Below, piece by piece: positions 7,122 through 29,609 of a stretch of 64,000 nt of DNA; the stretch's first letter is position 1, and each line of letters begins with the position of its first letter. The stretch comes from Alphaproteobacteria bacterium. GTDB lineage: Bacteria; Pseudomonadota; Alphaproteobacteria; G963923945. The stretch is taken from contig OZ000551.1 of the NCBI GenBank assembly GCA_963923945.1, positions 1,557,580-1,621,579 of the forward strand, read 5' to 3'. Position numbers and translations under genes: made by a program. Below the pieces are notes generated by a model, which worked only from the letters and a program-made list of their open reading frames with translations, was not told the origin of the DNA and searched no databases.

Positions 7122-8522
7122 TCATGCTGTTGCCGTTGATGTCACATGATCGCGCATATAATTTTTTACCGCGGCGGCATCATTGGGGAATGGGGTGTAT
7201 TTTTCCTCTCCAGCAATCGCTTTTTGCAAAATCTCTGGCATCTCGGGATCTCGTCCCAAGGCCTGCTGAATCGCTTGGGGAAATTTAGCCGGATGGGCGG
7301 TCGCCAGGGCAACAATCGGCCCATCGCGGCGGCGGGTTTCGGCTGCCGCCACCCCAATCGCCGTATGGGGATCAAGGATGGAGCCGGTTTCGGCATAAAT
7401 CTGGGCAATCACCGCTAACGTTTGGTGATCATCGGCCCGAAACCCGTGAAATACTTCCAAGCAAGCCTCCCATGATGCGGCATCAAAACAGACGGCCCCA
7501 TCGCAGCGAAAATCACTCATTAATCTGGCCACCGCTCCACCATCGCGGTCAAGAAGGTCGTAGATCAAGCGCTCAAAATTACTCGAAATTTGGATATCCA
7601 TACTCGGCGAAAGGGTGTGGCTGAGTTCCGCAACCCGCATGTCACCGCTTTCAAAAGTACGGGTCAAAATATCATTGCTGTTGCTGCCGACAATCAATTC
7701 AGCAATCGGCAACCCCATTTGCCGGGCGCAATAGCCAGCATAAACATTGCCAAAATTGCCTGTTGGTACGGAAAAACCAACCGCGCGGTCCGGGCCACCC
7801 AAGCAAGACAGCGCGCGGGCATAATAAACAATCTGGATCATAATACGCGCCCAATTAATCGAATTGACCGCCGCCAAAGCCATGTCATGACGAAAATCAG
7901 CATCGGCAAACAAGGTTTTCACAATATCTTGGCAGTCATCAAAACTGCCATCAATGGCGATATTATGAACATTGTCAGCCTGTATTGTGGTCATCTGGCG
8001 GCGCTGAATATCGCTGCATCGTCCTTCTGGATGCAGGATGACGATATCCAGGGCTGAGCGATTGATACAAGCGGCAATCGCCGCCGATCCGGTATCCCCA
8101 GATGTGGCCCCCAAGATGGTCGCCCGCGCACCACGGCGAGTCAGGATATGATCAAACAGACGCCCAACCACCTGCAGAGCATAGTCCTTAAAAGCCAATG
8201 TTGGGCCATGAAACAATTCCATCAACCAAACATCATCCCCCATCTGCCACAGGGGTGCGATGGCCGGATGACGAAAATCACGGTATGAGTCGGCCAAAAT
8301 TTCTGCGTAATCATCTTCATGGATGGAGCCGATAACATAAGGCCAAGTCACACGAAAAGCCGCATCGGCATAGCTAAGACCACGTAAGGAAGCAATCTCA
8401 TCCCGGCTCAAAATCGGCCATTCTTGAGGCACATAAAGGCCCCCATCCTCAGCCAACCCGGTGAGGAGGACATCGGCAAAGCCAAGATCAGCAGCCGCCC
8501 CCCGGCTGCTGGTATAGGTCAT
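7122..8522 (-). CDS. thrC: threonine synthase
   Basis: The track ORF runs to 8561, but the conserved start MTYTSSRG is at 8522; this avoids a 26-nt overlap with the upstream carboxypeptidase. PLP-dependent threonine synthase motifs are present (…SGSFKDY…). Confidence 0.85.
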   Translation of the reverse strand: MTYTSSRGAAADLGFADVLLTGLAEDGGLYVPQEWPILSRDEIASLRGLSYADAAFRVTWPYVIGSIHEDDYAEILADSYRDFRHPAIAPLWQMGDDVWLMELFHGPTLAFKDYALQVVGRLFDHILTRRGARATILGATSGDTGSAAIAACINRSALDIVILHPEGRCSDIQRRQMTTIQADNVHNIAIDGSFDDCQDIVKTLFADADFRHDMALAAVNSINWARIMIQIVYYARALSCLGGPDRAVGFSVPTGNFGNVYAGYCARQMGLPIAELIVGSNSNDILTRTFESGDMRVAELSHTLSPSMDIQISSNFERLIYDLLDRDGGAVARLMSDFRCDGAVCFDAASWEACLEVFHGFRADDHQTLAVIAQIYAETGSILDPHTAIGVAAAETRRRDGPIVALATAHPAKFPQAIQQALGRDPEMPEILQKAIAGEEKYTPFPNDAAAVKNYMRDHVTSTATA

Positions 8523-12849: not shown

Positions 12850-12983
12850 GACCCCCCCATACGCAATACGGTAATCATATAAAATAAAACAGCCAACCCC
12901 AACAGCGATAACCCTAAAACAATGTTGCGGAACCGACGGCGTTGTGCGGCCTCTTCCTGCTTATGTCTGTCTTTGGATACCAT
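12846..12983 (-). CDS. small (45 aa) single-TM protein translationally coupled to ctaG (stop TGA overlaps ctaG GTG/ATG)
   Basis: Manual translation of the minus strand gives MVSKDRHKQEEAAQRRRFRNIVLGLSLLGLAVLFYMITVLRMGGS. The reading frame is open in the ctaB-ctaG gap and its stop overlaps the ctaG start (gtcgTGATGaaa). The ORF track omits it because it is under 60 aa. Confidence 0.4.
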   Translation of the reverse strand: MVSKDRHKQEEAAQRRRFRNIVLGLSLLGLAVLFYMITVLRMGGS

Positions 12984-13009
12984 CGGATCAAAACGACCAA
13001 AAAACGTGA

Positions 13010-13939
13010 TCAAAAACCGCTAATGGTGACCGGATTGTCGATGATTGCATAATCGACCAGCATGGCTGAGAACAGAAGGAAGAGATAAAATATTGAATAC
13101 GTAAATAAAGCTCGGGCTGCCGCATGACCATCCCGCGCGCCGATATCCCAGACCGCCAAGGCATGATGCAAAAACAGCCAAGACAACAGAACCGCCGAAA
13201 CCCCATAAACCGCTCCGGCTAAACCCAAAACCCAGGGGAGTATGGCGCTCACCATCAACAGCAGACTATAAATAACAATTTGCCGACATGTTGCCCCGGC
13301 TCCCGCGGTCACCGGCATCATCGGGACCCCGGCTTTGGCATAATCACCATTGCGATACAAAGCCAAGGCCCAGAAATGCGGTGGTGTCCAAAGGAAAATG
13401 ATCAGAGTCATCAAAAGCGGGTAGAGGCTGATTTCTCCACTGGCGGCTGCCCAGCCCACCAGAGGCGGGAAGGCCCCGGCCAGACCACCAATGACAATAT
13501 TCTGCGGTGTGCGGCGTTTCAACCACATGGTGTAAATGAAAACATAAAACCCAATCGTCATCGCTAATAAGAAGGCGGCCAAATAATTCAGGGCCAAGCC
13601 GATGATGGTGACCGAAAATACGGCAAGAATGACCCCGAAGGCCAGGGCGTTGGCGGCGGTCAAACGGCCATCGGGAATCGGTCGTCGCCGTGTGCGAGTC
13701 ATGATGGCGTCGATATCCCGGTCAAACCACATATTGATCGCTCCAGCCGCTCCGGCGCCAACCGCGATACAGAGGACCGCGATGATGCCAAGAATTGGAT
13801 GCGGCTGATGAGGAGCCAACAAAAGGCCAACTGTTGCCGTGAAAACAGCCAACGACATGACCCCAGGTTTGAGGAGAGCCAGAAAATCACCAACCGCGCT
13901 CTCCTCAGTCTCGCAAGCCTCACGCTTAGAAGGCGTCAT
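13010..13939 (-). CDS. ctaB: protoheme IX farnesyltransferase (heme O synthase)
   Basis: UbiA-family motifs are present (…NMWFDRDIDAIMTRTRRRP…). The track ORF extends to 14062 but codes a repeat-derived low-complexity N-terminus (SSGSMSSGS…ESGVLDSGVLESG). The start at MTPSKRE (13939) gives about 309 aa, which is typical for this enzyme. Confidence 0.8.
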   Translation of the reverse strand: MTPSKREACETEESAVGDFLALLKPGVMSLAVFTATVGLLLAPHQPHPILGIIAVLCIAVGAGAAGAINMWFDRDIDAIMTRTRRRPIPDGRLTAANALAFGVILAVFSVTIIGLALNYLAAFLLAMTIGFYVFIYTMWLKRRTPQNIVIGGLAGAFPPLVGWAAASGEISLYPLLMTLIIFLWTPPHFWALALYRNGDYAKAGVPMMPVTAGAGATCRQIVIYSLLLMVSAILPWVLGLAGAVYGVSAVLLSWLFLHHALAVWDIGARDGHAAARALFTYSIFYLFLLFSAMLVDYAIIDNPVTISGF

Positions 13940-14100
13940 TCCAGATTCAAGAACGCCGGAATCAAGAACGCCAGACTCAAGAATGTTGGGTGCGGCAGAA
14001 AGAAGAGCCGGGCGCGACACGGAGCCAGATGACATGGAGCCAGATGACATGGGACCAAACAAAGTGAAATAAAAGAGCCCGTATTTTTACCGCACCACCC

Positions 14101-15831: not shown

Positions 15832-16740
15832 TCAAGGGGTATCAGGCCGCATCATCGCGGTACGATCCCAATGGGAATCGGCTTGGGCAAATTCTTCTTG
15901 CGCTTCAATGACCCAAGCGTCGAATTCCTGTTGGCTCACCGCTCTAATGGCAATCGGCATAAAGCCATGATTGACCCCGCATAATTCCGAGCATTGTCCG
16001 TAATACATACCCTCTTGATCGATGCGTAGCCACGTTTCATTGAGGCGCCCAGGGACTGAATCCATCTTGACGCCGAGGGACGGAACCGCCCAAGAATGGA
16101 TAACCCCGGCCGGATCAGCGGCCACCAAAACCCGTATCGTTTTGCCTACCGGCAAGACAACATCGTAATCGGTGGCCAATAGACGCGGCTGGCCTTCTTC
16201 CAAATCTTCATCGGCAACCATAAAGGCATCATAAGTAAACCCGCCATGATCAGGATATTCATAAGACCAATACCACTGATAACTGGTTGTTTTAAGAGTC
16301 ATATCGGCTTCCGGAACGGTACCCGAATAATAGAGCAAACGGAAAGAAGGAATGGCGATAAAAACCAAAATAAGGACCGGGATGACCGTCCAGGCCACTT
16401 CCAAAAAACTGTTATGGACTGTTTTGGTCGGTTTGGGGTTGGCTGAGGCCCGAAACCGCACCATCACATAAATCATCAGACACAAAACAAATAAGGTAAT
16501 CACAGTGATGACCACAAAGACCCAATCATGGAAACCGGTGATCTGTTCCATGACCGGCGATGCGGCCGCTTGAAACCCGGTTTGCCACGGATAGGGTTGG
16601 CCAACAACCTCTGCATGGGCGAAAGACGCCGGGAAAACAGCGCCAACCATTGTGAGGGCAAGGCCAAACAATTGCTCTCTCATCGAACGAAACTTCACCA
16701 AACGAAACCTCATTGAATGAAACCTCCCTTTTTGTCCCAT
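15832..16740 (-). CDS. ctaC: cytochrome c oxidase subunit II
   Basis: Has a signal peptide, two TM helices and the CuA site (CSELCGVNHGFMP). Confidence 0.9.
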   Translation of the reverse strand: MGQKGRFHSMRFRLVKFRSMREQLFGLALTMVGAVFPASFAHAEVVGQPYPWQTGFQAAASPVMEQITGFHDWVFVVITVITLFVLCLMIYVMVRFRASANPKPTKTVHNSFLEVAWTVIPVLILVFIAIPSFRLLYYSGTVPEADMTLKTTSYQWYWSYEYPDHGGFTYDAFMVADEDLEEGQPRLLATDYDVVLPVGKTIRVLVAADPAGVIHSWAVPSLGVKMDSVPGRLNETWLRIDQEGMYYGQCSELCGVNHGFMPIAIRAVSQQEFDAWVIEAQEEFAQADSHWDRTAMMRPDTP

Positions 16741-17385
16741 GTTATATTTTGCTCTCTATAGATTATAAATTAACTCACTCTCCACAAGAGTTCCACGAGA
16801 GGCATATATAACATTTATAATATGTATAAAATCCGTAACACGTAATATTTACAACAAGATAAGATTCAACAATACCATTATGATACTTAGATATGATACT
16901 TAGGTATGATACTTAGGGGTATCCTGCAATCAATATCTCACGTTATTAAGATCAAAATTATTAAGATCAAAATTAAATTAAGATCAAAATTAAGACCAAA
17001 TAATTTTAATCAATTATTTAAAGACAACAAATGAGATCACTTTGTAAGAGATTTCTCGCCTAAAAAATATTCTGTCTAAAGAAACATAAAAGAATTAAGA
17101 GGATGCCGGGATATGAAACCGCATGAATAAATTTTCACATATACAATTGATATCTGCAATTGATGATATCTGCAATTGACATCAATGCAATCAATTATGT
17201 CATACACCAATCATTATAGTATACCAGTGCTTTACCCTTCAAGCATTCTTAAAAAAACTATATATAATCTAAGAACCAACAACTGGATTTTCTAGGTTTT
17301 TTTGTCGCATCCATCCATCGCTGTCATCATCCATTTACATTATAAAGAATGACCAAGCGATAAAGAATGACCAAGCGGCGGGCCC
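16741..17385. promoter_or_regulatory. 645-bp AT-rich divergent intergenic region (ctaC operon / tldD) packed with short tandem direct repeats
   Basis: Repeats present: tatgatacttag x3 (16879-16916), attaagatcaaa x3-4 (16945-17000), caattga(t)atctg x2-3 (17145-17195), and ataaagaatgaccaagcg x2 perfect (17342-17377). There are no spacers and units are too short for CRISPR. Probably promoter/operator DNA. Confidence 0.5.
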
Positions 17386-18867
17386 ATGACCAATATGTCG
17401 GATATGAATATGTCGGATATAAAGTATCCTCATATTGAGGCTTCTCAAGCAGCGGCTCTTTTTTTTCGCCAAAGGGATTTGGATCAACCGCAAGCGACCG
17501 CTCTGATTGCCGATATCCTGACTGGCTGCGATGATGGGGAACTGTTTCTTGAGCAGTGCCAGACCGAATCTCTGGCCTTGGACCGTGGTCATCTGAAATC
17601 AGCCGGGTTTGATATCCGTTGTGGTTTCGGTTTGCGGGCTGTTTATGGCGATGCCACCGGCTATGCCCATGCAACCGAGATCAGCAAAGCCGCCATTGAC
17701 CGAGCTGGCCAGACAATCCGGGCGGTACGCGGCAATTATTCCGGGGCCTTGGCGCCATCACCACCGGCCGCTCAGAGACAATTATACACCAATATTGATC
17801 CATCGACCGAAGCCTCTTTCGCTGAGAAAGCCGCGCTCCTCTCTGATATTGATTCTTATGCCCGTTCTCGTGATCCACGGGTGCAACAAGTCACCGCATC
17901 CCTTTCTTGTTCTTGGCAAGTGGTTTTGATCCTGCGCCCCGATGGCCGGGCGGCAGCCGATATGCGTCCTTTGACCCGTTTGAATGTTGCCATCACTGTG
18001 CGGGGCCGCGATGGTGTTATGGAAACCGGCTCTTACGGTGGTGGTGGACGCTCCCAACTCGGCCATTTATTGGCCTTAGACTATTGGCAGCACAGCGTTG
18101 ATGAAGCCTTGCGCCAAGCCCTGGTCAAGATTGAGGCGATAGCCGCTCCAGCCGGCGAGATGACGGTTGTCTTGGGTCCAGGATGGCCGGGTATTTTGCT
18201 CCATGAAGCGGTTGGCCACGGCCTTGAAGGAGATTTTAACCGCAAAAAAACCTCAGTTTTTGCTGGTTTAATGGGCCAACGGGTGGCCGCCAAAGGGGTG
18301 ACCGTGATTGACAATGGCAGCCTGCCTGATCAGCGGGGTTCCCTGACCATTGATGATGAAGGCACACCCAGTCACCAGACCGTCTTGATTGAGGATGGGG
18401 TCTTGGTCGGCTATATGCAAGATCGCCTAAATGCCCGTTTATCCGGGGTGGCCCCAACCGGCAATGGTCGTCGTCAAAGCTATGCCCATTGTCCGATGCC
18501 GCGAATGACCAATACTTATATGTTGGCCGGGGATCGCCATTCTGCTGATATTATTGCCGCAACCCCTAAGGGCATCTACGCCACCAGCTTCGGCGGTGGA
18601 TCGGTGGATATCACCTCGGGAAAATTCGTCTTTTCAGCCTCCGAGGCTTATATGATCGAAAACGGCAAAATCGGCCCGCCGGTCAAGGGGGCGACATTGA
18701 TCGGTAATGGTGCTGATGCTTTGACCAAAATCAAAGCGATTGGTAATGATTTAGCCTTTGATCAAGGGATTGGAACCTGTGGCAAGGAAGGCCAATATGT
18801 CCCGGTGGGTGTGGGGTTGCCGACTGTGCGTATTGATGGCCTGACGGTTGGTGGAACCCAGGGCTAA
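17386..18867 (+). CDS. tldD: metalloprotease TldD (peptidase U62 / PmbA-TldD family)
   Basis: The roughly 490-aa product has a conserved HExxxH-like region (LLHEAVGHGLEGDF) and a C-terminal GxC motif (GTCGKEGQ). The N-terminal codons (MTNMSDMNMSD) lie in a 15-bp tandem repeat, so the true start may be slightly downstream. Confidence 0.85.
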   Translation: MTNMSDMNMSDIKYPHIEASQAAALFFRQRDLDQPQATALIADILTGCDDGELFLEQCQTESLALDRGHLKSAGFDIRCGFGLRAVYGDATGYAHATEISKAAIDRAGQTIRAVRGNYSGALAPSPPAAQRQLYTNIDPSTEASFAEKAALLSDIDSYARSRDPRVQQVTASLSCSWQVVLILRPDGRAAADMRPLTRLNVAITVRGRDGVMETGSYGGGGRSQLGHLLALDYWQHSVDEALRQALVKIEAIAAPAGEMTVVLGPGWPGILLHEAVGHGLEGDFNRKKTSVFAGLMGQRVAAKGVTVIDNGSLPDQRGSLTIDDEGTPSHQTVLIEDGVLVGYMQDRLNARLSGVAPTGNGRRQSYAHCPMPRMTNTYMLAGDRHSADIIAATPKGIYATSFGGGSVDITSGKFVFSASEAYMIENGKIGPPVKGATLIGNGADALTKIKAIGNDLAFDQGIGTCGKEGQYVPVGVGLPTVRIDGLTVGGTQG

Positions 18868-18896: not shown

Positions 18897-18975
18897 CGGG
18901 AATGCCAACCGGTCCATGCCGGTATTTTTCTTGATCGCTTTTCATTTATTGTGATGATGGGGTGGGGGTGTTCCC

Positions 18976-19224
18976 CTATGGTTGGGTGGCTTTATTTTCG
19001 GCATCACTCAGCGTGGTCTGCAGGTCGCTTGCTTGATCCTTGTAAGCGTCAGCAATATGGTCGGCCGCGGCGATGCCAACCAGGGTAATGGTCGCCAAAA
19101 GCAAAACATACTCAATGGCGGTGGCACCGTTCTGGTTGCCGAGCAGAGCGGGCTTGCCGCGTGCCGACCAAGTGCGGAAAAAATCCGATATTCGGCTGAA
19201 AAACAGAGCAAAATTCTTATTCAT
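18976..19224 (-). CDS. flp: Flp/Fap family pilin (orphan copy)
   Basis: Contains the Flp prepilin processing motif G/ATAIEYVLL followed by a hydrophobic helix. The start is chosen at MNKNFALFF (19224), giving an 82-aa prepilin. The track ORF extends to 19266. Confidence 0.6.
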   Translation of the reverse strand: MNKNFALFFSRISDFFRTWSARGKPALLGNQNGATAIEYVLLLATITLVGIAAADHIADAYKDQASDLQTTLSDAENKATQP

Positions 19225-19465
19225 CTGTGTTCTTCTTATCCGTTTTGAAATTTTGAGAATATTCAATGAAAAGCATTTTCAAAAGCACTCTTTATGTTTG
19301 AAGCCGCCAGGACCTCTCCTCTTAAAATAACCGAAAATTGGTAAGAATTTGGTTAATTGCCCGCCCAAAGCCATGCATAAAAAAGGGGCCGCAGAATATG
19401 CGGCCCCGCCAGTTCTTTTGTGATCAGCGATTGCTCGCCATGTTACCCACAAATAAAGACCACAC

Positions 19466-20233
19466 TTATCGCCGACTGCCAAACAGTTGCAACAACAGGA
19501 TGAACATATTGACGAAATCCAGATAAATCCGCAACGCACCATGAATGGCTTTTTTCCCAGCGGTCTCGCTATCATCACTTTCATGATAGCTTTGTTTGAT
19601 CATCTGGGTGTCATAAGCGGTCAAACCGATAAACACCAGCACCCCAATCACCGATATGGCAAACTGCAAGACGCTGCTTCCCAAAAATAGATTGACCAAG
19701 CTGGCGACAATCACACCGATCAGCCCCATGAACAGGAAGGAGCCAAAACGGGAAAGATCCGTCTTGGTGGTATACCCATACAAACTCATCGCCCCGAATG
19801 TCCCGGCGGTGATGAAAAAGACTCGCGCGACCGAGGCCCCAGTATAAACAATGAACAGCGAGGCCATGGATGCCCCCATCACAGCGGCAAACAGCCAAAA
19901 CACGGTCTGAGCGGTACTGGCCCGCATACGTTCAATGCCAAAACTCAAAACCAAAATGAACGCAAAGGGGGCCAGAATAACCAGCCAGCGCAAAGGCGAA
20001 TTGAACAAAGCCTCTCCCAAGCCGGTCAAAGAGAGAATCTGTCCTTCAGGACCAAATGTCACCGCCATTTGAGCCAGCCCGTAAGCAACAATACCGGTTA
20101 ATGCCAAGGCGGAAGCCATATAATTATAAACCCGCAACATAAAGGCGCGTAGACCTTCATCAATCGCCACATCCCGGGCCTGGCCGCGCGCCGACCAAGA
20201 TGTTTGATTACGTGTTTGATTACCCAGAGCCAT
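19466..20233 (-). CDS. Bax inhibitor-1/YccA family membrane protein
   Basis: The 255-aa, 7-TM product has a charged C-terminus, matching the BI-1/YccA (TMBIM) family. Confidence 0.75.
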   Translation of the reverse strand: MALGNQTRNQTSWSARGQARDVAIDEGLRAFMLRVYNYMASALALTGIVAYGLAQMAVTFGPEGQILSLTGLGEALFNSPLRWLVILAPFAFILVLSFGIERMRASTAQTVFWLFAAVMGASMASLFIVYTGASVARVFFITAGTFGAMSLYGYTTKTDLSRFGSFLFMGLIGVIVASLVNLFLGSSVLQFAISVIGVLVFIGLTAYDTQMIKQSYHESDDSETAGKKAIHGALRIYLDFVNMFILLLQLFGSRR

Positions 20234-20854
20234 AAGATTGTTTCTCCCTACCAGTTTTCAAATGAGGATTGACCATAAAAACAGCGTTTCAGAAACTTGA
20301 GAAAATTTCAAAGACTTAAAAAACCATATTTCAGATGGTGTCTCTTACTGAAAAAATCAAGTTCTCAAAAAATCAAGTTCAACCCAATAATGATATAAAT
20401 TAAACCAAAGTCAGGTTAACGTAAAGTCAAACCCATGAAGGATTAAACCAATATAAAGATATATTCCTCAAATAAATAGAATCATCATCTGATACGACCA
20501 TCAGCCTATTAACCTCCGAGCACCGGCCACCTTATGAATGAACAAATATGAATGAACAAATGAATGAACAAGAGCCGTTGCGTTTGGGGGCAACCGCTTT
20601 ATAGAATACCGATGCGATACCATCTGAGATGAACCATCATGGCGTCTATCATTGTTCTGGTCTATCATTGTTCCAGAGCGTTGGGATCAAACGTCTTGGG
20701 ACCATAGAGTTTTGAAGGATCATAGAGTGTTGAGATCGAATGATCACCGGTTCAGCCGATATGATTGCGGTACTCAACCGGTCCCATTCTTTGATCATTT
20801 TTTCTTTGATATTTTTCCCACAGATGAGGATTGACCATAAATGAGAACTGACCA
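20234..20854. repeat. AT-rich intergenic spacer containing at least 5 different tandem repeats, flanked by an 18-bp perfect direct repeat
   Basis: The 18-bp repeat atgaggattgaccataaa occurs at 20262-20279 and again at 20824-20841. Internal tandem repeats: aaaaatcaagttc x2 (20351-20380), atgaatgaacaa x3 (20533-20572), tctatcattgttc x2 (20644-20674), and gga(c/t)catagagt(t/g)ttga x2 (20699-20734). Confidence 0.5.
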
Positions 20855-21910
20855 ATGAAATATCGCCCGCTTGGCCGCACCGGTCTTGATGTGAGCGTGA
20901 TTGGTCTTGGGACCATGACTTGGGGGGAGCAAAACACCCCAGATGAAGCCTATGACCAACTTGATTATGCCCTTGAGCGGGGGGTCAATCTGATTGATGC
21001 TGCTGAATTGTACCCGGTTCCTCCGCGGGCCCAAACCGCAACCCGTACCGAGACCATCATCGGCAACTGGCTCACCGCCCGTAAAAACCGTGATCGGGTT
21101 ATTTTGGCCACCAAGGTGACCGGCCGCTCCGGCGGGCTGGCTTGGTTGCGTGATGGGGAACGTCCTTGCTTGTCGCGTGACCATATCATGATGGCGGTTG
21201 AGGGCAGTTTGAAACGGTTGCAGACCGATTATATTGATCTTTATCAAATTCATTGGCCGGATCGCGCGACCAATTTTTTCGGACAGCTGGGTTTTACCCT
21301 ACCCGAACATGCTCTTGATGACGACAGCATTCCGATTGAGGATCAGCTACAAACCTTGGATGATCTGGTCCGGGCTGGAAAAATTCGTTTTATCGGCCTT
21401 TCCAACGAAACCCCTTGGGGGGTGATGCGGTTTTTGGAATTGGCGGAAAAAAACCGCTGGCCGCGCGCGGTGTCGATCCAAAACCCCTATTCCTTGCTCA
21501 ATCGCAGTTTTGAGGTGGGTCTGGCTGAGGTTGCCTTTCGTGAATCGTGTGGTTTGTTGGCCTATTCACCGCTGGCTTTTGGGATGCTCACCGGTAAATA
21601 TGATGGCGGTAAACAGCCGGAAAAAGGCCGCTTGACCATATTTGGCGAGATGTTTGACCGCTATACCAAGCCGCGGGGCCGTCGGGCGGCGGCAATCTAT
21701 AACCGCATTGCGGTTGATCATGGACTCATTCCAGCCCAAATGGCCCTTGCTTATGTCAACAGCCGGTCTTTTGTGACCAGTAATCTCATCGGTGCCACCA
21801 CGATGGAACAGCTGGCGACCAATATTGATAGCGTTGATCTCACTGTGCCCGATTCGGTCATTCAGGCCATCGAAATGGCCCATGCTGAGGACACCTATCC
21901 TTGTCCTTAG
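20855..21910 (+). CDS. aldo/keto reductase (Tas-like, NADP-dependent)
   Basis: The 351-aa product has an AKR N-terminus (MKYRPLGRTGLDVSVIGLGTMTWG) and catalytic tetrad context (…DLYQIHWPD…). Confidence 0.85.
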   Translation: MKYRPLGRTGLDVSVIGLGTMTWGEQNTPDEAYDQLDYALERGVNLIDAAELYPVPPRAQTATRTETIIGNWLTARKNRDRVILATKVTGRSGGLAWLRDGERPCLSRDHIMMAVEGSLKRLQTDYIDLYQIHWPDRATNFFGQLGFTLPEHALDDDSIPIEDQLQTLDDLVRAGKIRFIGLSNETPWGVMRFLELAEKNRWPRAVSIQNPYSLLNRSFEVGLAEVAFRESCGLLAYSPLAFGMLTGKYDGGKQPEKGRLTIFGEMFDRYTKPRGRRAAAIYNRIAVDHGLIPAQMALAYVNSRSFVTSNLIGATTMEQLATNIDSVDLTVPDSVIQAIEMAHAEDTYPCP

Positions 21911-22003: not shown

Positions 22004-23008
22004 TTATAAAACGCCGCCGCCCAGCCCCTTAAAGCTATCGGTGATTTTCAATATGGCCGGCCCACCGAGAACCACAAACAGAGGCGGAAAAATAAACAAC
22101 ATCAGCGGAATAGCCATCAGAGCCGGCAAGCGGGCGGCTTTTTCTTCAGCCTTCAACATACGTTCGTTGCGAAATTCGGCTGCCAAGACCCGCAAAGATT
22201 GAGCAATCGGGGTGCCGTATTTTTCCGATTGCCGCAGACTGTTGACAACCGCCTGAATCATCGCCAGATCGGTGCGATCACTGAGATTTTCCAGGGCTTT
22301 TTGACGGCTGGGTAGAAAACTCAACTCAACCGCGGTCAATTCCAACTCGGCCGCCATTTCAGAACAGGTTTCTCGGGTTTCCCGGGCGATCCGTTTGAGG
22401 GCGGCATCAAGACTGAGGCCGGCATCAGCACAAATCACCAACAAATCAAGCGCATCAGGCAATGCTTTTGCGAGCACCGCTTTACGTTTATCGGTTTTAT
22501 TGCGCACGATAATGGCCGGCAGATAATACCCCAAACCGACCGCCATCAGCATCGCCATGAAAGATTGAAACAGGCTGATGTCAGCAACCCGGACGATAAA
22601 AAGGAAAAAGAAAGCCCCGATTCCCAAAACCCCGGCGCCAAGAATACGCAGATAGAAAAAATACAAAACTGCATCAAGACCACGATACCCGGCCCGGGCC
22701 AGCTTATTCACAATCTCTTTATGTTGTTCACCATCATCAAGCCGCATCTTCTCAACGATGCGGCTGATTGATTTCATCCCAACGAAATTGCTGCGCCGCT
22801 TGGGGTCTTTGATCTCCATAACTTTGCTGACCAGTTTTTCTCGATGCTTACCAAGGGTGCGCAAATTTTTGGCCGTTTTATCCCGCTCAACCAAAGTCAA
22901 CCAAAACACCACGGTGGCTATCGCCGCGGCCACAGCGGCGGCCAACACGGTTATATCTTCCAGATTGAGAGAGAAAAAATCCTCAAGCATTTCGATGAGA
23001 TCAGTCAT
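22004..23008 (-). CDS. tadC: Flp pilus assembly inner-membrane platform protein TadC
   Basis: T2SS-F/GspF-like topology; it lies downstream of tadB in the cpa operon. Confidence 0.8.
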   Translation of the reverse strand: MTDLIEMLEDFFSLNLEDITVLAAAVAAAIATVVFWLTLVERDKTAKNLRTLGKHREKLVSKVMEIKDPKRRSNFVGMKSISRIVEKMRLDDGEQHKEIVNKLARAGYRGLDAVLYFFYLRILGAGVLGIGAFFFLFIVRVADISLFQSFMAMLMAVGLGYYLPAIIVRNKTDKRKAVLAKALPDALDLLVICADAGLSLDAALKRIARETRETCSEMAAELELTAVELSFLPSRQKALENLSDRTDLAMIQAVVNSLRQSEKYGTPIAQSLRVLAAEFRNERMLKAEEKAARLPALMAIPLMLFIFPPLFVVLGGPAILKITDSFKGLGGGVL

Positions 23009-23024
23009 ATCAAACTTTCCGATC

Positions 23025-24005
23025 TTAAATCTCGAACCGGGCCATATTGAACATCACAAAAGCCCCAATCGCCAACCAAACCGAGGCGAAAATAAGCATC
23101 GTATGGCCGCGCGGATCAGTAAATAAAACCGATGCATATTCTGGATTAAGGGTGTGGATGACTCCAAACAGGATAAAAGGCAGGGCGCCGATAATATAGG
23201 CGCTGACTTTTGCTTCACTGGATAATGCCTTGATTTTCAGTTTTAATTGCTTGCGGCGGCGCAAAATTTCTGAGAGATTTTCCAAAGTTTCAGCAAGGTT
23301 TCCCCCGGTTTCTCGCTGGATTGATAAGGTGATGGCAAAGAATTTGAAATCGGGCAGATCCAAACGGCGCGCGGTTTCGGTCATCGCATCATCCAGGCTC
23401 ACCCCGATCTTGATCTGATCAACGATCCAGCCAAATTCTTCGGCCACCGGTCCTTTCATTTCATCGGCAATGGCGGCAAAACCATCGGTGGTCGGCATGC
23501 CGCTTTTTAGGCCTCGTACAATCAGATCAAGAGCACCGGGAAACTGTTCCAAAAATGTGGCCAACCGGTTGCTGATCATGACGCTACAGGCCAGCCAAGG
23601 CAGCGCCAGAGCCAAGATAAAGCCCAACAACACAGCGGTCGGGTAGGGGAGTTGCAGATTCCATGATGCGACAACAAAGCCGCCCAATCCGGCCCCAACA
23701 CACCATAAGGCGTAATCACCCAAGCCAATCTCACGGCCGGTCCGGGCCAAGCGATCACGTAATTGATCCGGGTTGGGGAGCCAGGCCTGAACCAGACGAT
23801 CCAGGATGGGCACTCTGCTGGTGGCTTCGCGGCGGCGTAGATTGCCGTCCAATCCAACCGGATTAATGCTGCCGCCCTTGCCGCTGATCACGCCGAGGCG
23901 TTGATCAAGATGGCGGCGGGTATGGCCGGATTGAAGACCAATCGCCAAAGCCGCCACCATAAGAATAGCGCTGACCACTGCACCGAGAATGATGATAAAA
24001 CTCAT
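23025..24005 (-). CDS. tadB: Flp pilus assembly inner-membrane platform protein TadB
   Basis: GspF-like domain; its start overlaps the cpaF stop (ATGA-type coupling). Confidence 0.8.
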   Translation of the reverse strand: MSFIIILGAVVSAILMVAALAIGLQSGHTRRHLDQRLGVISGKGGSINPVGLDGNLRRREATSRVPILDRLVQAWLPNPDQLRDRLARTGREIGLGDYALWCVGAGLGGFVVASWNLQLPYPTAVLLGFILALALPWLACSVMISNRLATFLEQFPGALDLIVRGLKSGMPTTDGFAAIADEMKGPVAEEFGWIVDQIKIGVSLDDAMTETARRLDLPDFKFFAITLSIQRETGGNLAETLENLSEILRRRKQLKLKIKALSSEAKVSAYIIGALPFILFGVIHTLNPEYASVLFTDPRGHTMLIFASVWLAIGAFVMFNMARFEI

Positions 24006-26095
24006 CGGGCCCCCCCGGGTGCCGCCACATTCTGTTCTGAAGACGCGATGATTCGCATCAATTCATTCTCCAGGCCGAAATATGCCGCCTTGGCTGCGAA
24101 ATGTGGTCGCAATCCAGAACAGATATAATCTCCATAGAGGTTGCCGTCCTTATCTTCTCCCTTAAACTTGAATGTGAACAATTCTTGAGTGGTGATGACT
24201 TCACCTTCCATGCCAACAATCTCCATGATGCTGGTGACTCGCCGCTTGCCATCGCGCATACGGCTGATCTGGACAATCATATCCAGGGCTGAAGAAATCT
24301 GGGTGCGTACAGCCCGGGCCGGTAAATTGACATTGGAAAGGCCGATCATATTCTCCAGGCGTGATAAAGCCTCACGCGGCCGGTTGGCATGGATGGTGCC
24401 CAGTGATCCATCATGGCCGGTATTCATGGCTTGCAGCATATCAACCGCTTCTTCACCCCGCACCTCACCGAGAATGATCCGATCGGGACGCATGCGTAGA
24501 GAATTTTTCAGCAGATCACGCATGGTGATTTCATTCTCGCCTTCCAGGTTGGGTGGCCGGGTTTCCAGACGCACCACATGGGGCTGCTGCAGCTGCAGTT
24601 CTGCCGCATCTTCGATTGAGACGATGCGTTCGCCTTCATCAATCATTTGCGAAATAGCGTTGAGCAAGGTGGTCTTGCCCGAACCGGTCCCCCCGGCAAT
24701 CAGGATATTGAGCCGTGAGCGTCCGGCAATCCGTAAAACCGTCTCCATGGCTGGAGAGATATTGCCCTGCTGGGCCATCATTTCTAGGGTGATTTTTTTT
24801 GCTGAAAATTTGCGAATCGAGATGCTCGGGCCATCAATCGCCAAAGGCGGAATAATGATATTGACCCGGCTGCCATCCATCAGCCGGGCATCGGCCAGCG
24901 GCATCGTTTCATCAACCCGGCGCCCGACCGCGGTGACAATACGTGATGCGATATTCATCACATGCTGATTGTCGTTGAAATGCACATCGGTCAATTCCAA
25001 CCGGCCGCCACGTTCAACATAGATCTGGTCGGGACCATTGACCATGATATCGGTGATCTGTTCATCATCAAGCAACGGCTCCAAAGGCCCCAGCCCCAGC
25101 ATATCATCCAGCAACATTTCGGTTAGTCCTTGCTGCTCAACTTTGTTCAGCTGGATTTTCTGTTCCTGCAAGACTTCACGCAAAATGCCGCCGATTTGTT
25201 TGGCGATTTGAGACCGTCCGAGCTTGCTGGCCGCCTTGACGTCAATGCGTTCAATCAACAGGGGCTGGACTTTCCCTTTGGCTTCCATGAGTTCAGAGAG
25301 GTTGACGGTGCTCAAGCGGCTGTTGCCCCGTGATGAGGTGACCCGGGCTTGGCGAATGCGTGAGCGACGCGGCTCTCGATCGCGCTCTTCTGGTTCCGGT
25401 TCATAGAGTGGGGTTGACGGTGCGGCTGGCGCAACCGGTTGCTGAGGCGGGGCCATGTGAACAGGGGGCATGGGGACCGGTTGCGGCATCATCGCCGGAG
25501 CGCCCCCTCCATTGGGCATTCCTGGATGGATTCCCGGCTGAGTCATCATTGGGGCTGTCGGCTGAGAATACGGCATGGCGGTTGGTCCGCCGGGATGGGG
25601 AGACGCATAGGGATGGGGTCCAGCTTCCGGCATTGATGGTGCTGGTGGTGGCGTCATGGGTGCCGGGGCGGTTGCTGTGGGGGGTGGGGTTACTGCTGTG
25701 GCGGTTGTTGGTAAGGCTTCGGGTACTGGTGGTGGAGCCGCGATATTCTGCCCATCGGCCCAAGCCATATTGAACAAAGCCGCCAAAAGAGATTGATGAT
25801 CCGCCGCATTGAGGGTGATGGCGGCCCGGGTTAGGTAGTCATCAACAAAAATTTGGATTCGGCCTTGGATATCTTGCATATCACCGGTATTGGGGGATGC
25901 GGAGCGAATGGCCGCGATATGGGGGCTGAGAATCTGATACAATTCACCAACCCGATCTTGTGGTGTGGCTGAATTGATGGCCGCAGGTGTTTCTTGAGGC
26001 TGGTTATACTGGTGAGATGGCCCGGTTTCCGGGACCATTCCTTGGTTGACCGTTCCTTGATTGACTGTTGCGGTGGCACTTTGAGTATTATACAT
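24002..26095 (-). CDS. cpaF: Flp pilus assembly ATPase CpaF/TadA with a roughly 280-aa N-terminal extension (novel N-domain plus Pro/Ala/Met-rich low-complexity linker)
   Basis: The C-terminal roughly 420 aa are canonical: GLGPLEPLLDD, Walker A GGTGSGKTT, and Asp/His boxes. The N-terminal 280 aa have no CpaF counterpart; residues about 120-280 are an APPPVPEALPTTATAVTPPPTATAPAPMTPPPAP… low-complexity tract. Confidence 0.9.
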   Translation of the reverse strand: MYNTQSATATVNQGTVNQGMVPETGPSHQYNQPQETPAAINSATPQDRVGELYQILSPHIAAIRSASPNTGDMQDIQGRIQIFVDDYLTRAAITLNAADHQSLLAALFNMAWADGQNIAAPPPVPEALPTTATAVTPPPTATAPAPMTPPPAPSMPEAGPHPYASPHPGGPTAMPYSQPTAPMMTQPGIHPGMPNGGGAPAMMPQPVPMPPVHMAPPQQPVAPAAPSTPLYEPEPEERDREPRRSRIRQARVTSSRGNSRLSTVNLSELMEAKGKVQPLLIERIDVKAASKLGRSQIAKQIGGILREVLQEQKIQLNKVEQQGLTEMLLDDMLGLGPLEPLLDDEQITDIMVNGPDQIYVERGGRLELTDVHFNDNQHVMNIASRIVTAVGRRVDETMPLADARLMDGSRVNIIIPPLAIDGPSISIRKFSAKKITLEMMAQQGNISPAMETVLRIAGRSRLNILIAGGTGSGKTTLLNAISQMIDEGERIVSIEDAAELQLQQPHVVRLETRPPNLEGENEITMRDLLKNSLRMRPDRIILGEVRGEEAVDMLQAMNTGHDGSLGTIHANRPREALSRLENMIGLSNVNLPARAVRTQISSALDMIVQISRMRDGKRRVTSIMEIVGMEGEVITTQELFTFKFKGEDKDGNLYGDYICSGLRPHFAAKAAYFGLENELMRIIASSEQNVAAPGGAR

Positions 26096-26102
26096 ATCTC
26101 AA

Positions 26103-27377
26103 TCAATCTCCCATCAGCCAGCGACTGGCTTTTTCGAGAATTGTCTCCGGTTTGGTGGTAACATCATGACCTATCATGCGTTGGAGAACAGGAAGAATAT
26201 GGGCATGGGGTGCGACCATCGCCAAAGGTTTGCCGACATTCAAAGCCCGACTAACCGCGCTTGCTTCATGCGGTACAGAAAAATGAATCGGTATTCCCAA
26301 AGCCCGGGAAAATTGATCATGTTCAACTTGTCCGGGGGCACCGGTTGGGGCATTGGTCACAATCTTGATGGTTGCTTTGCACCCTGAGCGTTCAAGGGCC
26401 GCGCGCACACGAATGGTATCGCGTAGGCCGATCATGCTCAGATCACTGACAATAAAAATCTCATCAGCATTGATCGCCGCTTCGGGAAAATCCAACAGGC
26501 GGTAACGCGGCAGATCACAAATGATATGAGTAAACTGGCCCCGCAGTTCACTAATCAAGGTCTCAACCGCATCCTCGACCAGGTCAATATCTTCGCCGAT
26601 CTGTATATCCGCAGACATGATGGATAAGCTGTGGCTGTATTCGGAAAAAGCACCGGATAAAAAATGCGAATCGATCCTTTCCGGGTTTTCCAAAGCCGTC
26701 CTCAACGCTCCACCCGAATCCAGATTCAACTGCAGGCCCACACAGCCATATTCCAAATCAAAATCAATCACCAACACCTGGGCCGGTTTTTCTTGGGCTG
26801 ATTTTTCTTGGGCCGGTTTTTCTCTGGCCTCATCATGGGCGATGGCAAAAGCATAATTGACCGCCAGAGTGCTGGCCCCAACGCCGCCGCGCGCACCGAT
26901 GAATGTCACCAAGGAACTGCTCTGGGGCTTGGTTTTGATGATCCGGCTGTTATCGCCGGAGTCGTCGCCAGAATCCAGCTCCAGGCTTGCGCGTAATTCT
27001 TCTGGATCAAGCGGTTTGGTGAGATAGGCTTTGGCTCCAGCTTCGCGCATACGGGTGGTTGAACCGGCTGAATCATCCTGACCGATGACAATAATTTGGG
27101 TATTGTCTCCATAGGCGGCATCCATATCATTAACCGCCGCCAAAGGGTCGGATTGATCACTCACATCAATCACCGCAAATGGCGGCAGCATCTGTGACCA
27201 TGCCAGAAAATCACCCACCCCACCGTGATGGACACAATTGGTTTCCAGACCGTGTTCCTGGGCCATTTGTTTGATCGTCTCCAGGCAATCGGGATCATGC
27301 GAAAAAGCGATGAAAACATCCGACATAGAATCGGCCTCCAACCGCGACGATGACTGATCAGTGGGGCGCATTAACAT
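26103..27377 (-). CDS. cpaE: pilus assembly protein CpaE/TadZ (N-terminal receiver-like domain plus MinD/ParA-like ATPase with deviant Walker A)
   Basis: Contains a GARGGVGAST P-loop-like segment and a MinD-family fold. It carries an in-frame 15-bp x3 tandem repeat coding KPAQEKSAQEKPAQ (26781-26825). Confidence 0.75.
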   Translation of the reverse strand: MLMRPTDQSSSRLEADSMSDVFIAFSHDPDCLETIKQMAQEHGLETNCVHHGGVGDFLAWSQMLPPFAVIDVSDQSDPLAAVNDMDAAYGDNTQIIVIGQDDSAGSTTRMREAGAKAYLTKPLDPEELRASLELDSGDDSGDNSRIIKTKPQSSSLVTFIGARGGVGASTLAVNYAFAIAHDEAREKPAQEKSAQEKPAQVLVIDFDLEYGCVGLQLNLDSGGALRTALENPERIDSHFLSGAFSEYSHSLSIMSADIQIGEDIDLVEDAVETLISELRGQFTHIICDLPRYRLLDFPEAAINADEIFIVSDLSMIGLRDTIRVRAALERSGCKATIKIVTNAPTGAPGQVEHDQFSRALGIPIHFSVPHEASAVSRALNVGKPLAMVAPHAHILPVLQRMIGHDVTTKPETILEKASRWLMGD

Positions 27378-27402
27378 ATGGATTGCCGCTTTCTTATTGT
27401 TT

Positions 27403-28134
27403 TTATTGTCCTAAGCCTACTTCTTCGACCTGTTGGGTCTCTCCTTGCCGGTAGCTTTCCAGAGATTTGTGGAAACGCACCGCTTGGGCCGGTTCCAAAG
27501 TCCGGCCCTGGATAAGGTCACGCGGATGGGCAACCATCAGGCTGAGATTGCGGGCGGTCGCACAGCCAAAATTGCTGCTTGGGGCGTTGTTGATGCCGCT
27601 GTTCGAAGAACCAGACCAATCGGGGCAAGATGGGGGAATAGCCACATAACGCACCGCCTCCACAACAATGCCGTTGGCCTCATCAGAACGGGCCGCCCGG
27701 GGGGGCAAAAGATCCGATTGAAAGCCGCGGATGGCCGCGTATTCAGCGACCACTGCTTGTTGTTGAGCCAGAAGATCATCATTGATCATGCTGTCATCGC
27801 CACTCTCATCGCCACTCAACGGCGATAACCCATAAATCCTTAAAACCGGGTGCTGACCAGTTTTGATCTGACGCCGCAAGAATGCATCAAGAGTCTCGGC
27901 GGCTTGGGCATCAAGAGAACTGTAGCCATCCAGAAAGGGAATCACCTGAGAGACCAAAGAGACGTCAACTTCTGGTTCTTGCCATTTGAAATGACCGGCC
28001 GCATTGGGAGGCTCACCGGCCGAACAGGCACTGATCACAAGGGCCATCATGGCGATGCCGAACCCCTTGAGGAGGGTGTCCGGGCTTTGATAGGGAAAGT
28101 TTCTCATTGAGCGGGTTATTCCTTTCATGGTCAT
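27403..28134 (-). CDS. cpaD: pilus assembly lipoprotein CpaD
   Basis: Has a signal peptide with a lipobox (LVISAC). The size and position between cpaC and cpaE match CpaD. Confidence 0.6.
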   Translation of the reverse strand: MTMKGITRSMRNFPYQSPDTLLKGFGIAMMALVISACSAGEPPNAAGHFKWQEPEVDVSLVSQVIPFLDGYSSLDAQAAETLDAFLRRQIKTGQHPVLRIYGLSPLSGDESGDDSMINDDLLAQQQAVVAEYAAIRGFQSDLLPPRAARSDEANGIVVEAVRYVAIPPSCPDWSGSSNSGINNAPSSNFGCATARNLSLMVAHPRDLIQGRTLEPAQAVRFHKSLESYRQGETQQVEEVGLGQ

Positions 28135-28147
28135 GAATCCAACCTTT

Positions 28148-29551
28148 TTATTCGATGATGAATCCGGCCGCCCCGGTCAATGCGCCGCCATCGGGACCAA
28201 TCGGGCGGCTGCGGCCATCGGCGATGCGGCTGCGATAGAGGTGACCGCCGAATATGCGCTCAGAGTCACTGGCCGGTCGGAATCCATCACCGGGTGTGGC
28301 CAGGGTGGCAACACTGACCGGGCGAACGATATAAGGGGTGACAATAATCACCAGCTCGGTTTCCTGATCGCGCAGTTGGTTAGAACGGAACAAGGTCCCC
28401 AAAATCGGGATATTGGCCAATCCGGGCAATTTATTCAGACTCTGGTTGAGATCGCGCTGCAACAAACCACCGATGGCAAAACTCTGGCCGGATGCCAGCT
28501 CAACCGTGGTTTCAGCCCGGCGGGTGGTGATGGACGGGATATTGAGACCGCCGATGGTGGTCGAGCTCTCGGCGACATTGCTGACTTCCGGACGCACCCG
28601 CAGACTGATCCGGTTTTCGGATAACACCACCGGGGTGAAAGAGAGGCTCACCCCAAAATTTTTAAACTCCACTCCCGGGGTTCCGGTGGCGCTGGGGGTC
28701 GGGATAGGAATTTCACCCCCAACCAGAAAACTGGCGGTCTCCCCGGAAAGGGCGGTCAAGTTGGGCTCAGCCAGCACAGTAACCAAGCCTTCGGTTTCCA
28801 ATGCTTCCAAGACCCCCTTGCCCGAGATGGCACCGGTTGCATAATCACCGGCCAACACATTGGCCCCACGGGTGACCACATCCTCACCAAAGGCCCCACC
28901 AAAACCCCAAATCAGTGAGCTGGCTCCACTCTCAAACACTTGCTCCCATTGCAGGCCGAATCGTTTGGTCGCTGAGCGGGAAACCTCAGCCACCTTGACC
29001 CGCAAATGGACTTGCTGGCTGCTGCTAAGATCAAGCTGATTGACCACCGAACCGCCCTCACCGGCATAACTCTTGGCGATGGTCTCAATATCCAAGGCTG
29101 CGGTGGCATCCGGGACCACCCCTTCCAGAGTCAAGCCTCCCTCATAAGAAGATACCGTGGGCGGTAAGGGCAGATTGGCTTGCTCCAATGCCCGATCAAG
29201 GCCGTCGATATCACGGCCGACCACCACTTTGCGGGCCAAGATGATCCGTTGTTCACCACCCATGACGAATAGGCTGGTTTGGCCGTTCTTTTTTCCATAA
29301 ACATAAAGCAGACGCGGCGATTTTAATTGAATATCGGCAATTTCCGGCTGGGCAATGAACACACTGGTGGCTGAGGAATCCAGACGAAGAACCTGCCCCT
29401 GATCCACCTGTATAGTGATGGGGGTTGGTTCGGCCAGGATCACTTCATTGGCGTTGGGGCTGCGGTTTGGTGTGCTGGCCAAAGCAATCACCGCGATGCC
29501 AACAAGCCCAAAATGTAAGATCAATCGGGAAATGGTCTTTCTCATTGCCAT
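28148..29551 (-). CDS. cpaC: Flp pilus secretin CpaC/RcpA
   Basis: The 467-aa product has a signal peptide, N-terminal BON/secretin-N domains and a C-terminal secretin domain (…GGLLQRDL…PILGTLFRS…). Confidence 0.85.
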   Translation of the reverse strand: MAMRKTISRLILHFGLVGIAVIALASTPNRSPNANEVILAEPTPITIQVDQGQVLRLDSSATSVFIAQPEIADIQLKSPRLLYVYGKKNGQTSLFVMGGEQRIILARKVVVGRDIDGLDRALEQANLPLPPTVSSYEGGLTLEGVVPDATAALDIETIAKSYAGEGGSVVNQLDLSSSQQVHLRVKVAEVSRSATKRFGLQWEQVFESGASSLIWGFGGAFGEDVVTRGANVLAGDYATGAISGKGVLEALETEGLVTVLAEPNLTALSGETASFLVGGEIPIPTPSATGTPGVEFKNFGVSLSFTPVVLSENRISLRVRPEVSNVAESSTTIGGLNIPSITTRRAETTVELASGQSFAIGGLLQRDLNQSLNKLPGLANIPILGTLFRSNQLRDQETELVIIVTPYIVRPVSVATLATPGDGFRPASDSERIFGGHLYRSRIADGRSRPIGPDGGALTGAAGFIIE

Positions 29552-29609
29552 TCCTTTACTGTTTTTTCGTGTGTTTTTTTCATGTGTTTTTTATGTTTTC
29601 CGGTAGGGA

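Follow-up and report, generated by a model that had tools for sequence, protein, structure and literature searches.

The repeats of phase-variable loci, known from Neisseria, Haemophilus and Campylobacter, are built of many copies of a 1-9-bp unit and act by shifting the reading frame or the -35/-10 spacing of surface or restriction-modification genes, while iterons consist of several copies of one motif that a single protein recognises. Arrays of another kind have been described in Ehrlichia ruminantium, where tandem repeats in long non-coding regions actively expand and contract (Collins et al. 2005, Frutos et al. 2006, via PMC10710844), and tandem duplications are reported to arise de novo in bacteria generally, a process tied to Okazaki-fragment maturation (bioRxiv 10.64898/2026.02.28.708716). 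Here, we describe a cluster of short tandem arrays in the divergent spacer between coxB and tldD of an alphaproteobacterium, set within a 64-kb window (the whole stretch of DNA analysed, out of a genome of ~2.1 Mb), and argue that these arrays are probably the near-neutral products of slippage or tandem duplication, a general process that would be unusually active, or unusually well tolerated, throughout the genome.

The genes on either side of the spacer have the identities given to them in the initial annotation, the ctaC operon and tldD both being borne out by Pfam. On the minus strand, the domains found are COX2 (coxB/ctaC), COX1, UbiA/CtaB, CtaG, COX3 and SURF1, with the coxB/ctaC ORF for cytochrome c oxidase subunit II (Pfam COX2 and COX2_TM) at 15832-16740, and on the plus strand the tldD ORF (17386-18867, 493 aa at its longest) encodes the metalloprotease TldD, with PmbA_TldD domains 1-3. 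The AT-rich divergent spacer between them (16741-17385) is 645 bp long and has a GC content of 0.30, locally down to 0.245, which places it ~21 GC points below the 51% of the window. It is also far more AT-rich than synonymous sites, where GC3 is ~0.55, so that neutrality alone does not account for its composition, which may have a function in its own right. Coding sequence takes up 88% of the window (56,616 of 64,000 bp) and spacers longer than 400 bp are few. We regard the coxB-tldD spacer, with reasonable confidence, as an ordinary divergent promoter and leader region of a conserved gene pair.

The repeats noted previously are all present, the 18-bp x2 and 15-bp x2 arrays included, but the earlier count of four families is one short, as the interval 16741-17421 holds five unrelated tandem families, four in the spacer and a fifth on the tldD start; a sixth, older array lies on the coxB start, just outside this interval. 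Nearest to coxB within the interval, a 13-bp x3 array of TATGATACTTAG(A/G) at 16879-16917 (TRF score 71, 96% matches) has copies that are 92-100% identical and a period that is no multiple of 3; each unit contains TATCAT on the minus strand, part of one weak sigma-70-like match. This is followed by a 15/17-bp x3 array, (TT)ATTAAGATCAAAA(TTAA), at 16943-16993 (TRF scores 82-84), of which positions 16960-16993 form two exact 17-bp copies, and by a perfect 16-bp x2 duplication of TGATATCTGCAATTGA at 17148-17179 (TRF score 64, 100%), with exact copies, flanks free of microhomology and a looser CAATTGA periodicity around it (17144-17183). The fourth array, in the probable tldD leader, is a perfect 18-bp x2 duplication of ATAAAGAATGACCAAGCG at 17342-17377 on the plus strand (TRF score 72, 100%), its copies again exact and its flanks again without microhomology, and 8 bp separate its end from the ATG at 17386. 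Each 18-bp unit includes ATGACCAA, copies of which begin at 17349, 17367 and 17386; the third (17386-17393, plus strand) lies 19 bp past the second, provides the tldD ORF with its first ATG and is perhaps what remains of a former copy of that unit.

The two remaining arrays lie directly on translation starts. On tldD, a 15-bp x2 in-frame duplication, AATATGTCGGATATG / AATATGTCGGATATA, occupies 17392-17421 on the plus strand (TRF score 58), with 14 of 15 positions identical (93%), and encodes MSDMN-MSDI. The older array on the coxB translation start (16679-16726, minus strand) has 3.2 copies of a 15-bp unit (TRF score 61, 75% matches, 80% identity), which on the coding strand read GGUUUCAUUCAAUGA / GGUUUCGUUUGGUGA / AGUUUCGUUCGAUGA and offer an in-frame AUG, GUG and AUG, respectively. 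Weak arrays of 11 bp x1.9 and 9 bp x3 are also found at 16781-16829. Arrays cover about one-third of the interval 16741-17421, and in three of its five copy pairs the copies are 100% identical, which recent origin would explain, but so would selection or homogenisation.

The start of coxB is probably the ATG at 16713, which is favoured by a GGGAGG Shine-Dalgarno sequence 9 nt upstream (16728-16723), the ATG at 16740 being without one. The true start of tldD is ambiguous between 17386, 17395, 17404 and 17410, the 18-bp and 15-bp arrays between them placing as many as six ATGs, spread over two frames, in 17349-17412. Homologues of TldD have 477 aa, compared with 493 aa for the longest ORF here, and begin MSDL.. 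or MTDL.. at 9-10 residues ahead of a conserved LFF, a distance that is 24 residues here. In each of coxB, ctaB and tldD, the region around the start codon carries an in-frame duplication, which fits a tolerance of such duplications at N-termini, and the long ORF calls of all three genes probably include the duplicated start regions.

The number of arrays was compared with that in 200 dinucleotide-preserving shuffles, counting TRF arrays that score at least 45. The focal interval has five arrays against a shuffle mean of 0.03 (maximum 1), the other intergenic DNA of the window has eight against 0.37 and its coding DNA has 10 against 0.64; an independent two-copy scan gave five against 0.03 for the focal interval and 25 against 1.0 expected for the whole window. 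The class that is in excess window-wide has units of 11-18 bp in 2-3 copies, with a density of 1.63 arrays per kb in intergenic DNA compared with 0.19 per kb in coding DNA. In the next long divergent spacer, between a Bax1-I-family gene and an aldo-keto reductase gene (20195-20860), there are five unrelated duplications (12 bp x2, 16 bp x2, 14 bp x2.9, 16 bp x2 and 15 bp x2), to which TRF adds an 18-bp x1.9 array, and a 200-bp spacer at 39642-39841 contains two arrays. With like repeats in coding DNA and in other spacers, the view that the arrays are special to this one promoter is not supported. The claim that their density is unusual stands when orthologous spacers are compared (see below) and is weakly upheld within the window, where the coxB-tldD spacer is the densest (nominal Poisson P = 0.01 against other intergenic DNA) but the 20195-20860 spacer equals its count of five. 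Randomly distributed low-complexity AT DNA, which the initial annotation had named as the outcome that would undo its reading, describes the arrays in part: they are not confined to promoters, but neither are they low-complexity DNA. All intergenic arrays of the window fall in promoter-containing spacers and none in the five convergent spacers, a difference that is not significant, as the convergent spacers total 1.1 kb and ~2 arrays would be expected there.

The distribution of the arrays looks filtered by selection. All 10 arrays of genuine ORFs have a period of 12 or 15 and thus preserve the reading frame, whereas the period is a multiple of 3 in five of the 13 non-coding arrays (Fisher P = 0.0027), and six of the 10 coding arrays lie either within the first ~30 codons or outside Pfam domains, in linkers and N-terminal extensions.

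Such arrays are sparser in the other alphaproteobacteria compared. Across 45 orthologous coxB-tldD spacers, there are six arrays in 20.7 kb and no comparable cluster; these spacers have a median length of 271 bp and a GC drop of ~3 points, so that the spacer described here is 2.4 times the median length and has ~25 times the repeat density. Perfect duplications with units of at least 11 bp number 13 in the 64 kb of the window, compared with 20 in 929 kb of loci from 80 other alphaproteobacteria, a ~9-fold difference in density. The high duplication load is likely to be a trait of the lineage rather than of the coxB-tldD locus. An upper size limit of 18 bp was considered as a further lineage trait and rejected, since in the relatives, too, only one of 20 perfect duplications exceeds 18 bp. 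An unrelated 37%-GC alphaproteobacterial MAG (L040) carries arrays of 20 bp x2, 15 bp x6.3 and 18 bp x4.3. A single 2.10-Mb contig is the only known source of the exact TldD, the nearest other TldD being 67% identical, and no protein at least 90% identical to it is present among 15 billion sequences; an apparent second-best match turned out to be a 741-aa internally duplicated protein with just 54-65% identity. A metagenome scan with the 18-mer returned 18 loci, every one a chance match of ~20 nt.

The arrays had been likened to iterated operators or UP-element-like sites, and more broadly they might be binding sites through which the divergent ctaC and tldD promoters are regulated together, whether operators, activator sites, UP-element-like sequences or phased sites bound by a nucleoid-associated protein (MucR or IHF, for example). 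In favour of this, the setting is a long and very AT-rich divergent promoter region, in a window whose spacer arrays occur only in promoter-containing spacers; the 16-bp unit has the small palindromes CAATTG and GATATC, and TGCAAT(C/T)(A/G)A is present four times, although this recurrence is within chance for AT-rich DNA. The five units, however, are unrelated to each other and share no motif, and none recurs elsewhere in the window, where blastn of the spacer finds no dispersed copies, its matches of 12-26 nt being no more than chance. FNR/FixK boxes are absent from the spacer, as are DnaA boxes at up to one mismatch and CtrA sites, the last being absent from the entire 64 kb, and the sigma-70-like promoter matches of the spacer fall below shuffle expectation (two against 4.4). 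No -35/-10 pair has an array between its elements, and the 13-bp unit contains one weak -10-like hexamer. Together with the lack of a comparable array set in any of the 45 orthologous spacers, and with identical-looking duplications inside ORFs, where one would not look for binding sites, these results do not support the operator or UP-element reading, and we judge binding sites of any of these kinds unlikely. Other identities for the spacer were also rejected: a replication origin, given no DnaA or CtrA boxes and no GC-skew switch; a decayed gene, since its six-frame peptides gave a best tblastn E of 0.16 against the 80 related loci; and a mobile element or dispersed repeat (REP/BIME/MITE), for which blastn found chance matches only. 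Rfam searches of the window returned, at the gathering threshold, only a tRNA at 41819-41902, and noise alone in the spacer at E up to 1, and folding revealed no leader RNA structure beyond chance (z = -0.35 and -0.06). A 12-nt direct repeat at 16729 and 17299 (11 of 12 identical) is at chance level.

The initial annotation had offered slipped-strand contingency loci as its other reading. In a minisatellite-type version of it, gain and loss of units of 13-18 bp would switch or tune expression, by altering the geometry of promoter or leader, which upstream ATGs are used, or the N-terminus of the protein. Similar repeats in E. ruminantium are, after all, reported to expand and contract actively (PMC10710844). 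The copies here are perfect or nearly so, which suggests that they are recent and prone to slippage, and the leader and start codon of tldD, with its several ATGs, are occupied by the 18-bp and 15-bp arrays. With just 2-3 copies of units of 12-18 bp, though, they differ from classical phase-variable tracts, whose 1-9-bp units are far shorter; every ORF array preserves the frame (the Fisher test above), so that no on/off frameshift would result; and the repeats target housekeeping respiration and protease genes and are scattered over many unrelated genes besides. In its classical form the proposal is not supported, and in the minisatellite form it is unlikely. That the arrays are assembly or consensus artefacts of a metagenome-derived genome is suggested by their source, one contig of 2,099,932 bp in one assembly, but artefacts would ignore the reading frame, which 10 of 10 ORF arrays keep, and the spread of array identity from 75% to 100% indicates arrays of different ages. 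L040, an independent assembly, has a like trait, and no assembly error mode is known to produce units of 11-18 bp in complex sequence. An artefact is accordingly highly improbable.

Arrays of unrelated units, in excess throughout the window and frame-preserving in ORFs, are most readily explained as near-neutral by-products of slippage or tandem duplication, an origin also raised at the outset and one that fits. Independent tandem duplications of 11-18 bp, mostly recent ones, would have extended the spacer one after another. They would stem from a general, replication-associated process, namely slippage or else tandem duplication as the lagging strand is synthesised, which may run, or be tolerated, at an unusually high level across the whole genome. 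Duplications would survive where they do little harm, in AT-rich non-coding DNA and 5' leaders and, for units whose length is divisible by 3, also in start-codon regions and the N-terminal tails of proteins. A general duplication process with survival where selection is weak would make the arrays mutational by-products rather than a designed set of binding sites, and any effect on ctaC or tldD expression, via altered spacing, extra upstream ATGs or 5-residue N-terminal extensions, would be incidental. We think it probable that this mechanism is the right one, that the arrays are close to neutral and that the rest of the 2.1-Mb genome resembles the window.

Flanking microhomology is absent from 12 of the 16 perfect duplications, which equals the random expectation of 75% and so lends no positive support to the classical microhomology-mediated route, although with n = 16 the result is also indistinguishable from the 50-60% reported for bacterial reference genomes (bioRxiv 10.64898/2026.02.28.708716). 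A further reading would have a lineage with a much raised rate of 9-18-bp tandem duplication and no microhomology signature, possibly caused by a lost or altered lagging-strand or single-strand-exonuclease function, in which arrays clustered on promoters, leaders and start codons would vary the expression of housekeeping genes reversibly and across the genome; this we consider quite improbable. Under the preferred explanation, near-neutral duplication products, the result mainly prevents mis-annotation, as such arrays ought to be taken neither for operators nor for phase-variation switches. The genome is gene-dense and of 51% GC, yet carries perfect short tandem duplications at ~9 times the usual density, and given its complete sequence and reads it could serve as a natural case in which to ask which replication and repair functions set the rate of tandem duplication in bacteria, and to show how such duplications lengthen spacers and N-termini.

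Set beside the described systems, the arrays share with phase-variable loci the placement of slippage-prone repeats at promoters and gene 5' ends, but differ in having 12-18-bp units in 2-3 copies that keep the frame, at housekeeping genes (cytochrome oxidase subunit II and TldD). Iteron and operator arrays are similar in that an AT-rich control region carries direct repeats of 13-22 bp, whereas here there are five unrelated units of 2-3 copies each that are not conserved in relatives. The de novo duplications described as present in all bacteria, microhomology-mediated ones among them, are two-copy, head-to-tail and at least 8 bp in length, with some reaching three copies, and are linked to processing of the lagging strand (bioRxiv 10.64898/2026.02.28.708716); those described here differ in that 12 of 16 perfect ones have no microhomology arm and in a density ~9 times that of 80 related loci. 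By analogy, the arrays most resemble the intergenic tandem repeats of E. ruminantium, also an alphaproteobacterium, in which many unrelated arrays are likewise concentrated in long AT-rich non-coding regions and are read as ongoing expansion and contraction that lengthens intergenic DNA, not as binding sites. The likeness has its bounds: the E. ruminantium genome is very AT-rich and ~64% coding, its low coding density coming from repeat-filled spacers, whereas the window has 51% GC, is 88% coding and lacks that trait; the units here are just 11-18 bp in 2-3 copies, unlike those of E. ruminantium; and the key observation there is a change of copy number from strain to strain. In their excess, their site-specific and unrelated units, their concentration in non-coding DNA and their preservation of the coding frame, the arrays of the window fit short tandem duplications of the VNTR type.

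The coxB-tldD spacer (16741-17385) is about 645 bp long, and the interval that spans it and the first codons of tldD (16741-17421) is flanked by a minus-strand ORF for cytochrome c oxidase subunit II (15832-16740; Pfam COX2 and COX2_TM), with COX1, CtaB/UbiA, CtaG, COX3 and SURF1 downstream of coxB by Pfam, and a plus-strand ORF for TldD (17386-18867; Pfam). GC content in the spacer is 0.30, falling locally to 0.245, the window mean being 0.51. On the agreement of TRF and an independent repeat finder, the interval contains a 13-bp unit in three copies (16879-16917), a 15/17-bp unit in three (16943-16993), perfect two-copy arrays of 16 bp (17148-17179) and 18 bp (17342-17377, ending 8 bp 5′ of the ATG at 17386), and a two-copy 15-bp array with 14/15 identity (17392-17421) that codes for MSDMN-MSDI in tldD. 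Two weak arrays were also called at 16781-16829, as was a decayed 15-bp array of 3.2 copies within the coxB ORF (16679-16726). At scores of at least 45, TRF reports five arrays here; when each segment was shuffled separately 200 times with its dinucleotide counts preserved, the mean was 0.03. The repeats described in the initial annotation are therefore present, real and statistically strong, in five families rather than the four it had counted.

How unusual this density is depends on the yardstick. Of 80 alphaproteobacterial loci that a TldD search retrieved, 45 keep the divergent coxB-tldD order, and the orthologous spacers have a median length of 271 bp (quartiles 214-353), against 646 bp for the focal spacer measured in the same way. 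Their GC content drops by some 3 points below the locus average, as against some 21 points here, and they hold six arrays in 20.7 kb as against five in 0.68 kb. The spacer is thus atypical for its gene pair, and to that extent the claim of an unusual density stands; it is much weaker within the same genome, as the rest of the window carries eight arrays scoring at least 45 in other intergenic DNA (0.37 in shuffles) and ten in coding DNA (0.64 in shuffles). A two-copy scan more sensitive than the TRF cut-off (adjacent units of 11-60 bp, identity at least 86%) found 25 duplications across the window versus 1.0 in shuffles, with five in the focal region and five in the next long divergent spacer (20195-20860); the 200-bp spacer 39642-39841 has two arrays. 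At the rate of other intergenic DNA, four arrays in 645 bp give a nominal Poisson P of 0.01; the focal spacer is therefore no outlier but ranks among the densest of its class.

Several further repeats and segments were seen elsewhere in the window. An exact 18-bp direct repeat, ATGAGGATTGACCATAAA (20262-20279 and 20824-20841, 562 bp apart), encloses nearly the whole 621-bp Bax1-I/aldo-keto-reductase spacer, each copy 15-30 bp from a gene start; its chance expectation is ~0.1 even allowing three mismatches, and the pair may have come from duplication of a ribosome-binding region, or may mark the two ends of an inserted stretch in the manner of att or target sites. The exact 17-mer ATGATGGGGTGGGGGTG, borderline for chance (~0.1 expected), occurs in the tldD-flp convergent spacer (18954-18970) and inside gltB (56111-56127). 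Directly 5′ of an HNH endonuclease ORF (39842-40399) lie two overlapping tandem arrays, one of a 17-bp unit (2.3 copies) and one of an A-rich 12-bp unit (3.2 copies). At the margin of the Tad pilus cluster, a segment of 433 bp at only 18% GC (31178-31610) adjoins small ORFs resembling Flp pilins; its left border carries tandem arrays with units of 14 and 8 bp.

The initial annotation had proposed that the arrays are iterated operator or UP-element-like sites, or slipped-strand contingency loci. The operator reading finds no backing in the spacer: the units share no common motif and have no further copy in the 64 kb, FNR/FixK, CtrA and DnaA boxes are absent, and sigma-70-like sites number two versus 4.4 in shuffles. 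Nor did the other searches point to a control device, with no Rfam match in the spacer, putative leader RNAs folding no better than shuffles, and no GC-skew switch or gene remnant detected. In classical contingency loci, long tracts of short units alter the reading frame or promoter spacing; the arrays here do neither, and this reading is likewise unsupported.

The distribution of the arrays is what would result if duplications formed throughout the DNA and were purged where they disrupt function. Intergenic DNA has 1.63 arrays per kb and ORFs 0.19; every one of the ten arrays in genuine ORFs has a period of 12 or 15, versus a multiple of 3 in only five of 13 non-coding arrays (Fisher P = 0.0027), a test with a mild ascertainment bias in that the label 'coding' needs an open frame through the array. 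Six of the ten ORF arrays fall in the first ~30 codons, and the remainder in linkers or N-terminal extensions of Tad-pilus and AsmA-like proteins. At coxB, ctaB and tldD, the initiation region itself is duplicated in frame. The coxB start has GGGAGG with an AUG 9 nt on, the repeated unit giving in-frame AUG, GUG and AUG; ctaB has two copies of AUGUCAUCUGGCUCC and then GUG; and ATGACCAA occurs three times around the tldD start (17349, 17367 and 17386). TldD homologues open with MSDL or MTDL, 9-10 residues ahead of a conserved LFF; this ORF has 24 residues ahead of it, beginning MTN-MSDMN-MSDIK.

The ctaB ORF carries, at 13937-14062, an N-terminal extension of ~40 residues made of two 15-bp arrays, encoding MSSGS-MSSGS-VS and LESGV-LDSGV-LESGM; the second array stops at an ATG (13939) from which translation would give a normal-length CtaB, so the annotated start is doubtful. 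The Tad/Flp pilus locus (22004-31100 and 37333-38874; CpaF with a 333-aa N-terminal extension, CpaE, CpaD, CpaC secretin and a TadG-like VWA protein) has several in-frame tandem duplications, at 26033, 26779, 27794 and 37557, and a 32-nt stretch at 31967-31998 is paralogous to part of the Flp-like pilin ORF 18976-19266 (91% identity). Among glycosyltransferase and LPG-synthase-like genes, a 525-aa ORF (43372-44949) with a GC content of 0.37, against 0.51 for the window, and no Pfam match is probably foreign or an orphan, coding for a membrane or surface protein.

The duplication load looks like a trait of the lineage and is high relative to other alphaproteobacteria, with 13 perfect duplications of units of at least 11 bp in the 64 kb (0.20 per kb) and 20 in 929 kb of the 80 comparison loci (0.022 per kb). 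The source is a single contig of 2,099,932 bp whose nearest TldD relatives are 67% identical, and a metagenome scan returned chance matches only. L040, an unrelated alphaproteobacterial MAG at 37% GC (2.14-Mb contig; coxB-tldD spacer 20% GC), behaves likewise: its AT-rich spacers carry a two-copy 20-bp array and, around tldD, near-perfect arrays of a 15-bp unit in 6.3 copies (7680-7790) and an 18-bp unit in 4.3 copies (12954-13031), all 98-100% identical, which suggests a recurrent trait of alphaproteobacteria drifting towards AT. Either weaker purifying selection in a population of small size or a higher mutation rate could account for the raised load; loss of single-strand exonucleases or flap processing makes such events more frequent in E. 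coli and yeast. Slippage, microhomology-mediated duplication and fill-in of staggered breaks are candidate routes; small variable segments are usually put down to slippage between short repeats (PMC2884548). Flanking microhomology is absent in 12 of 16 perfect duplications, which equals the random expectation of 75% and, at n = 16, is inseparable from a reported 50-60% in bacterial reference genomes (bioRxiv 10.64898/2026.02.28.708716).

The arrays are short tandem duplications of VNTR type, a kind already known, and what remains of interest is the genome-level load and the repeated duplication, in frame, of regions around start codons. De novo tandem duplication in this size range is general among bacteria and has been linked to the maturation of Okazaki fragments (bioRxiv 10.64898/2026.02.28.708716). 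Among described cases the nearest is Ehrlichia ruminantium, whose long non-coding regions hold intergenic tandem repeats that undergo expansion and contraction (PMC10710844), although the present window is gene-dense (88% coding) at 51% GC, and its units are short and present in only two to three copies.
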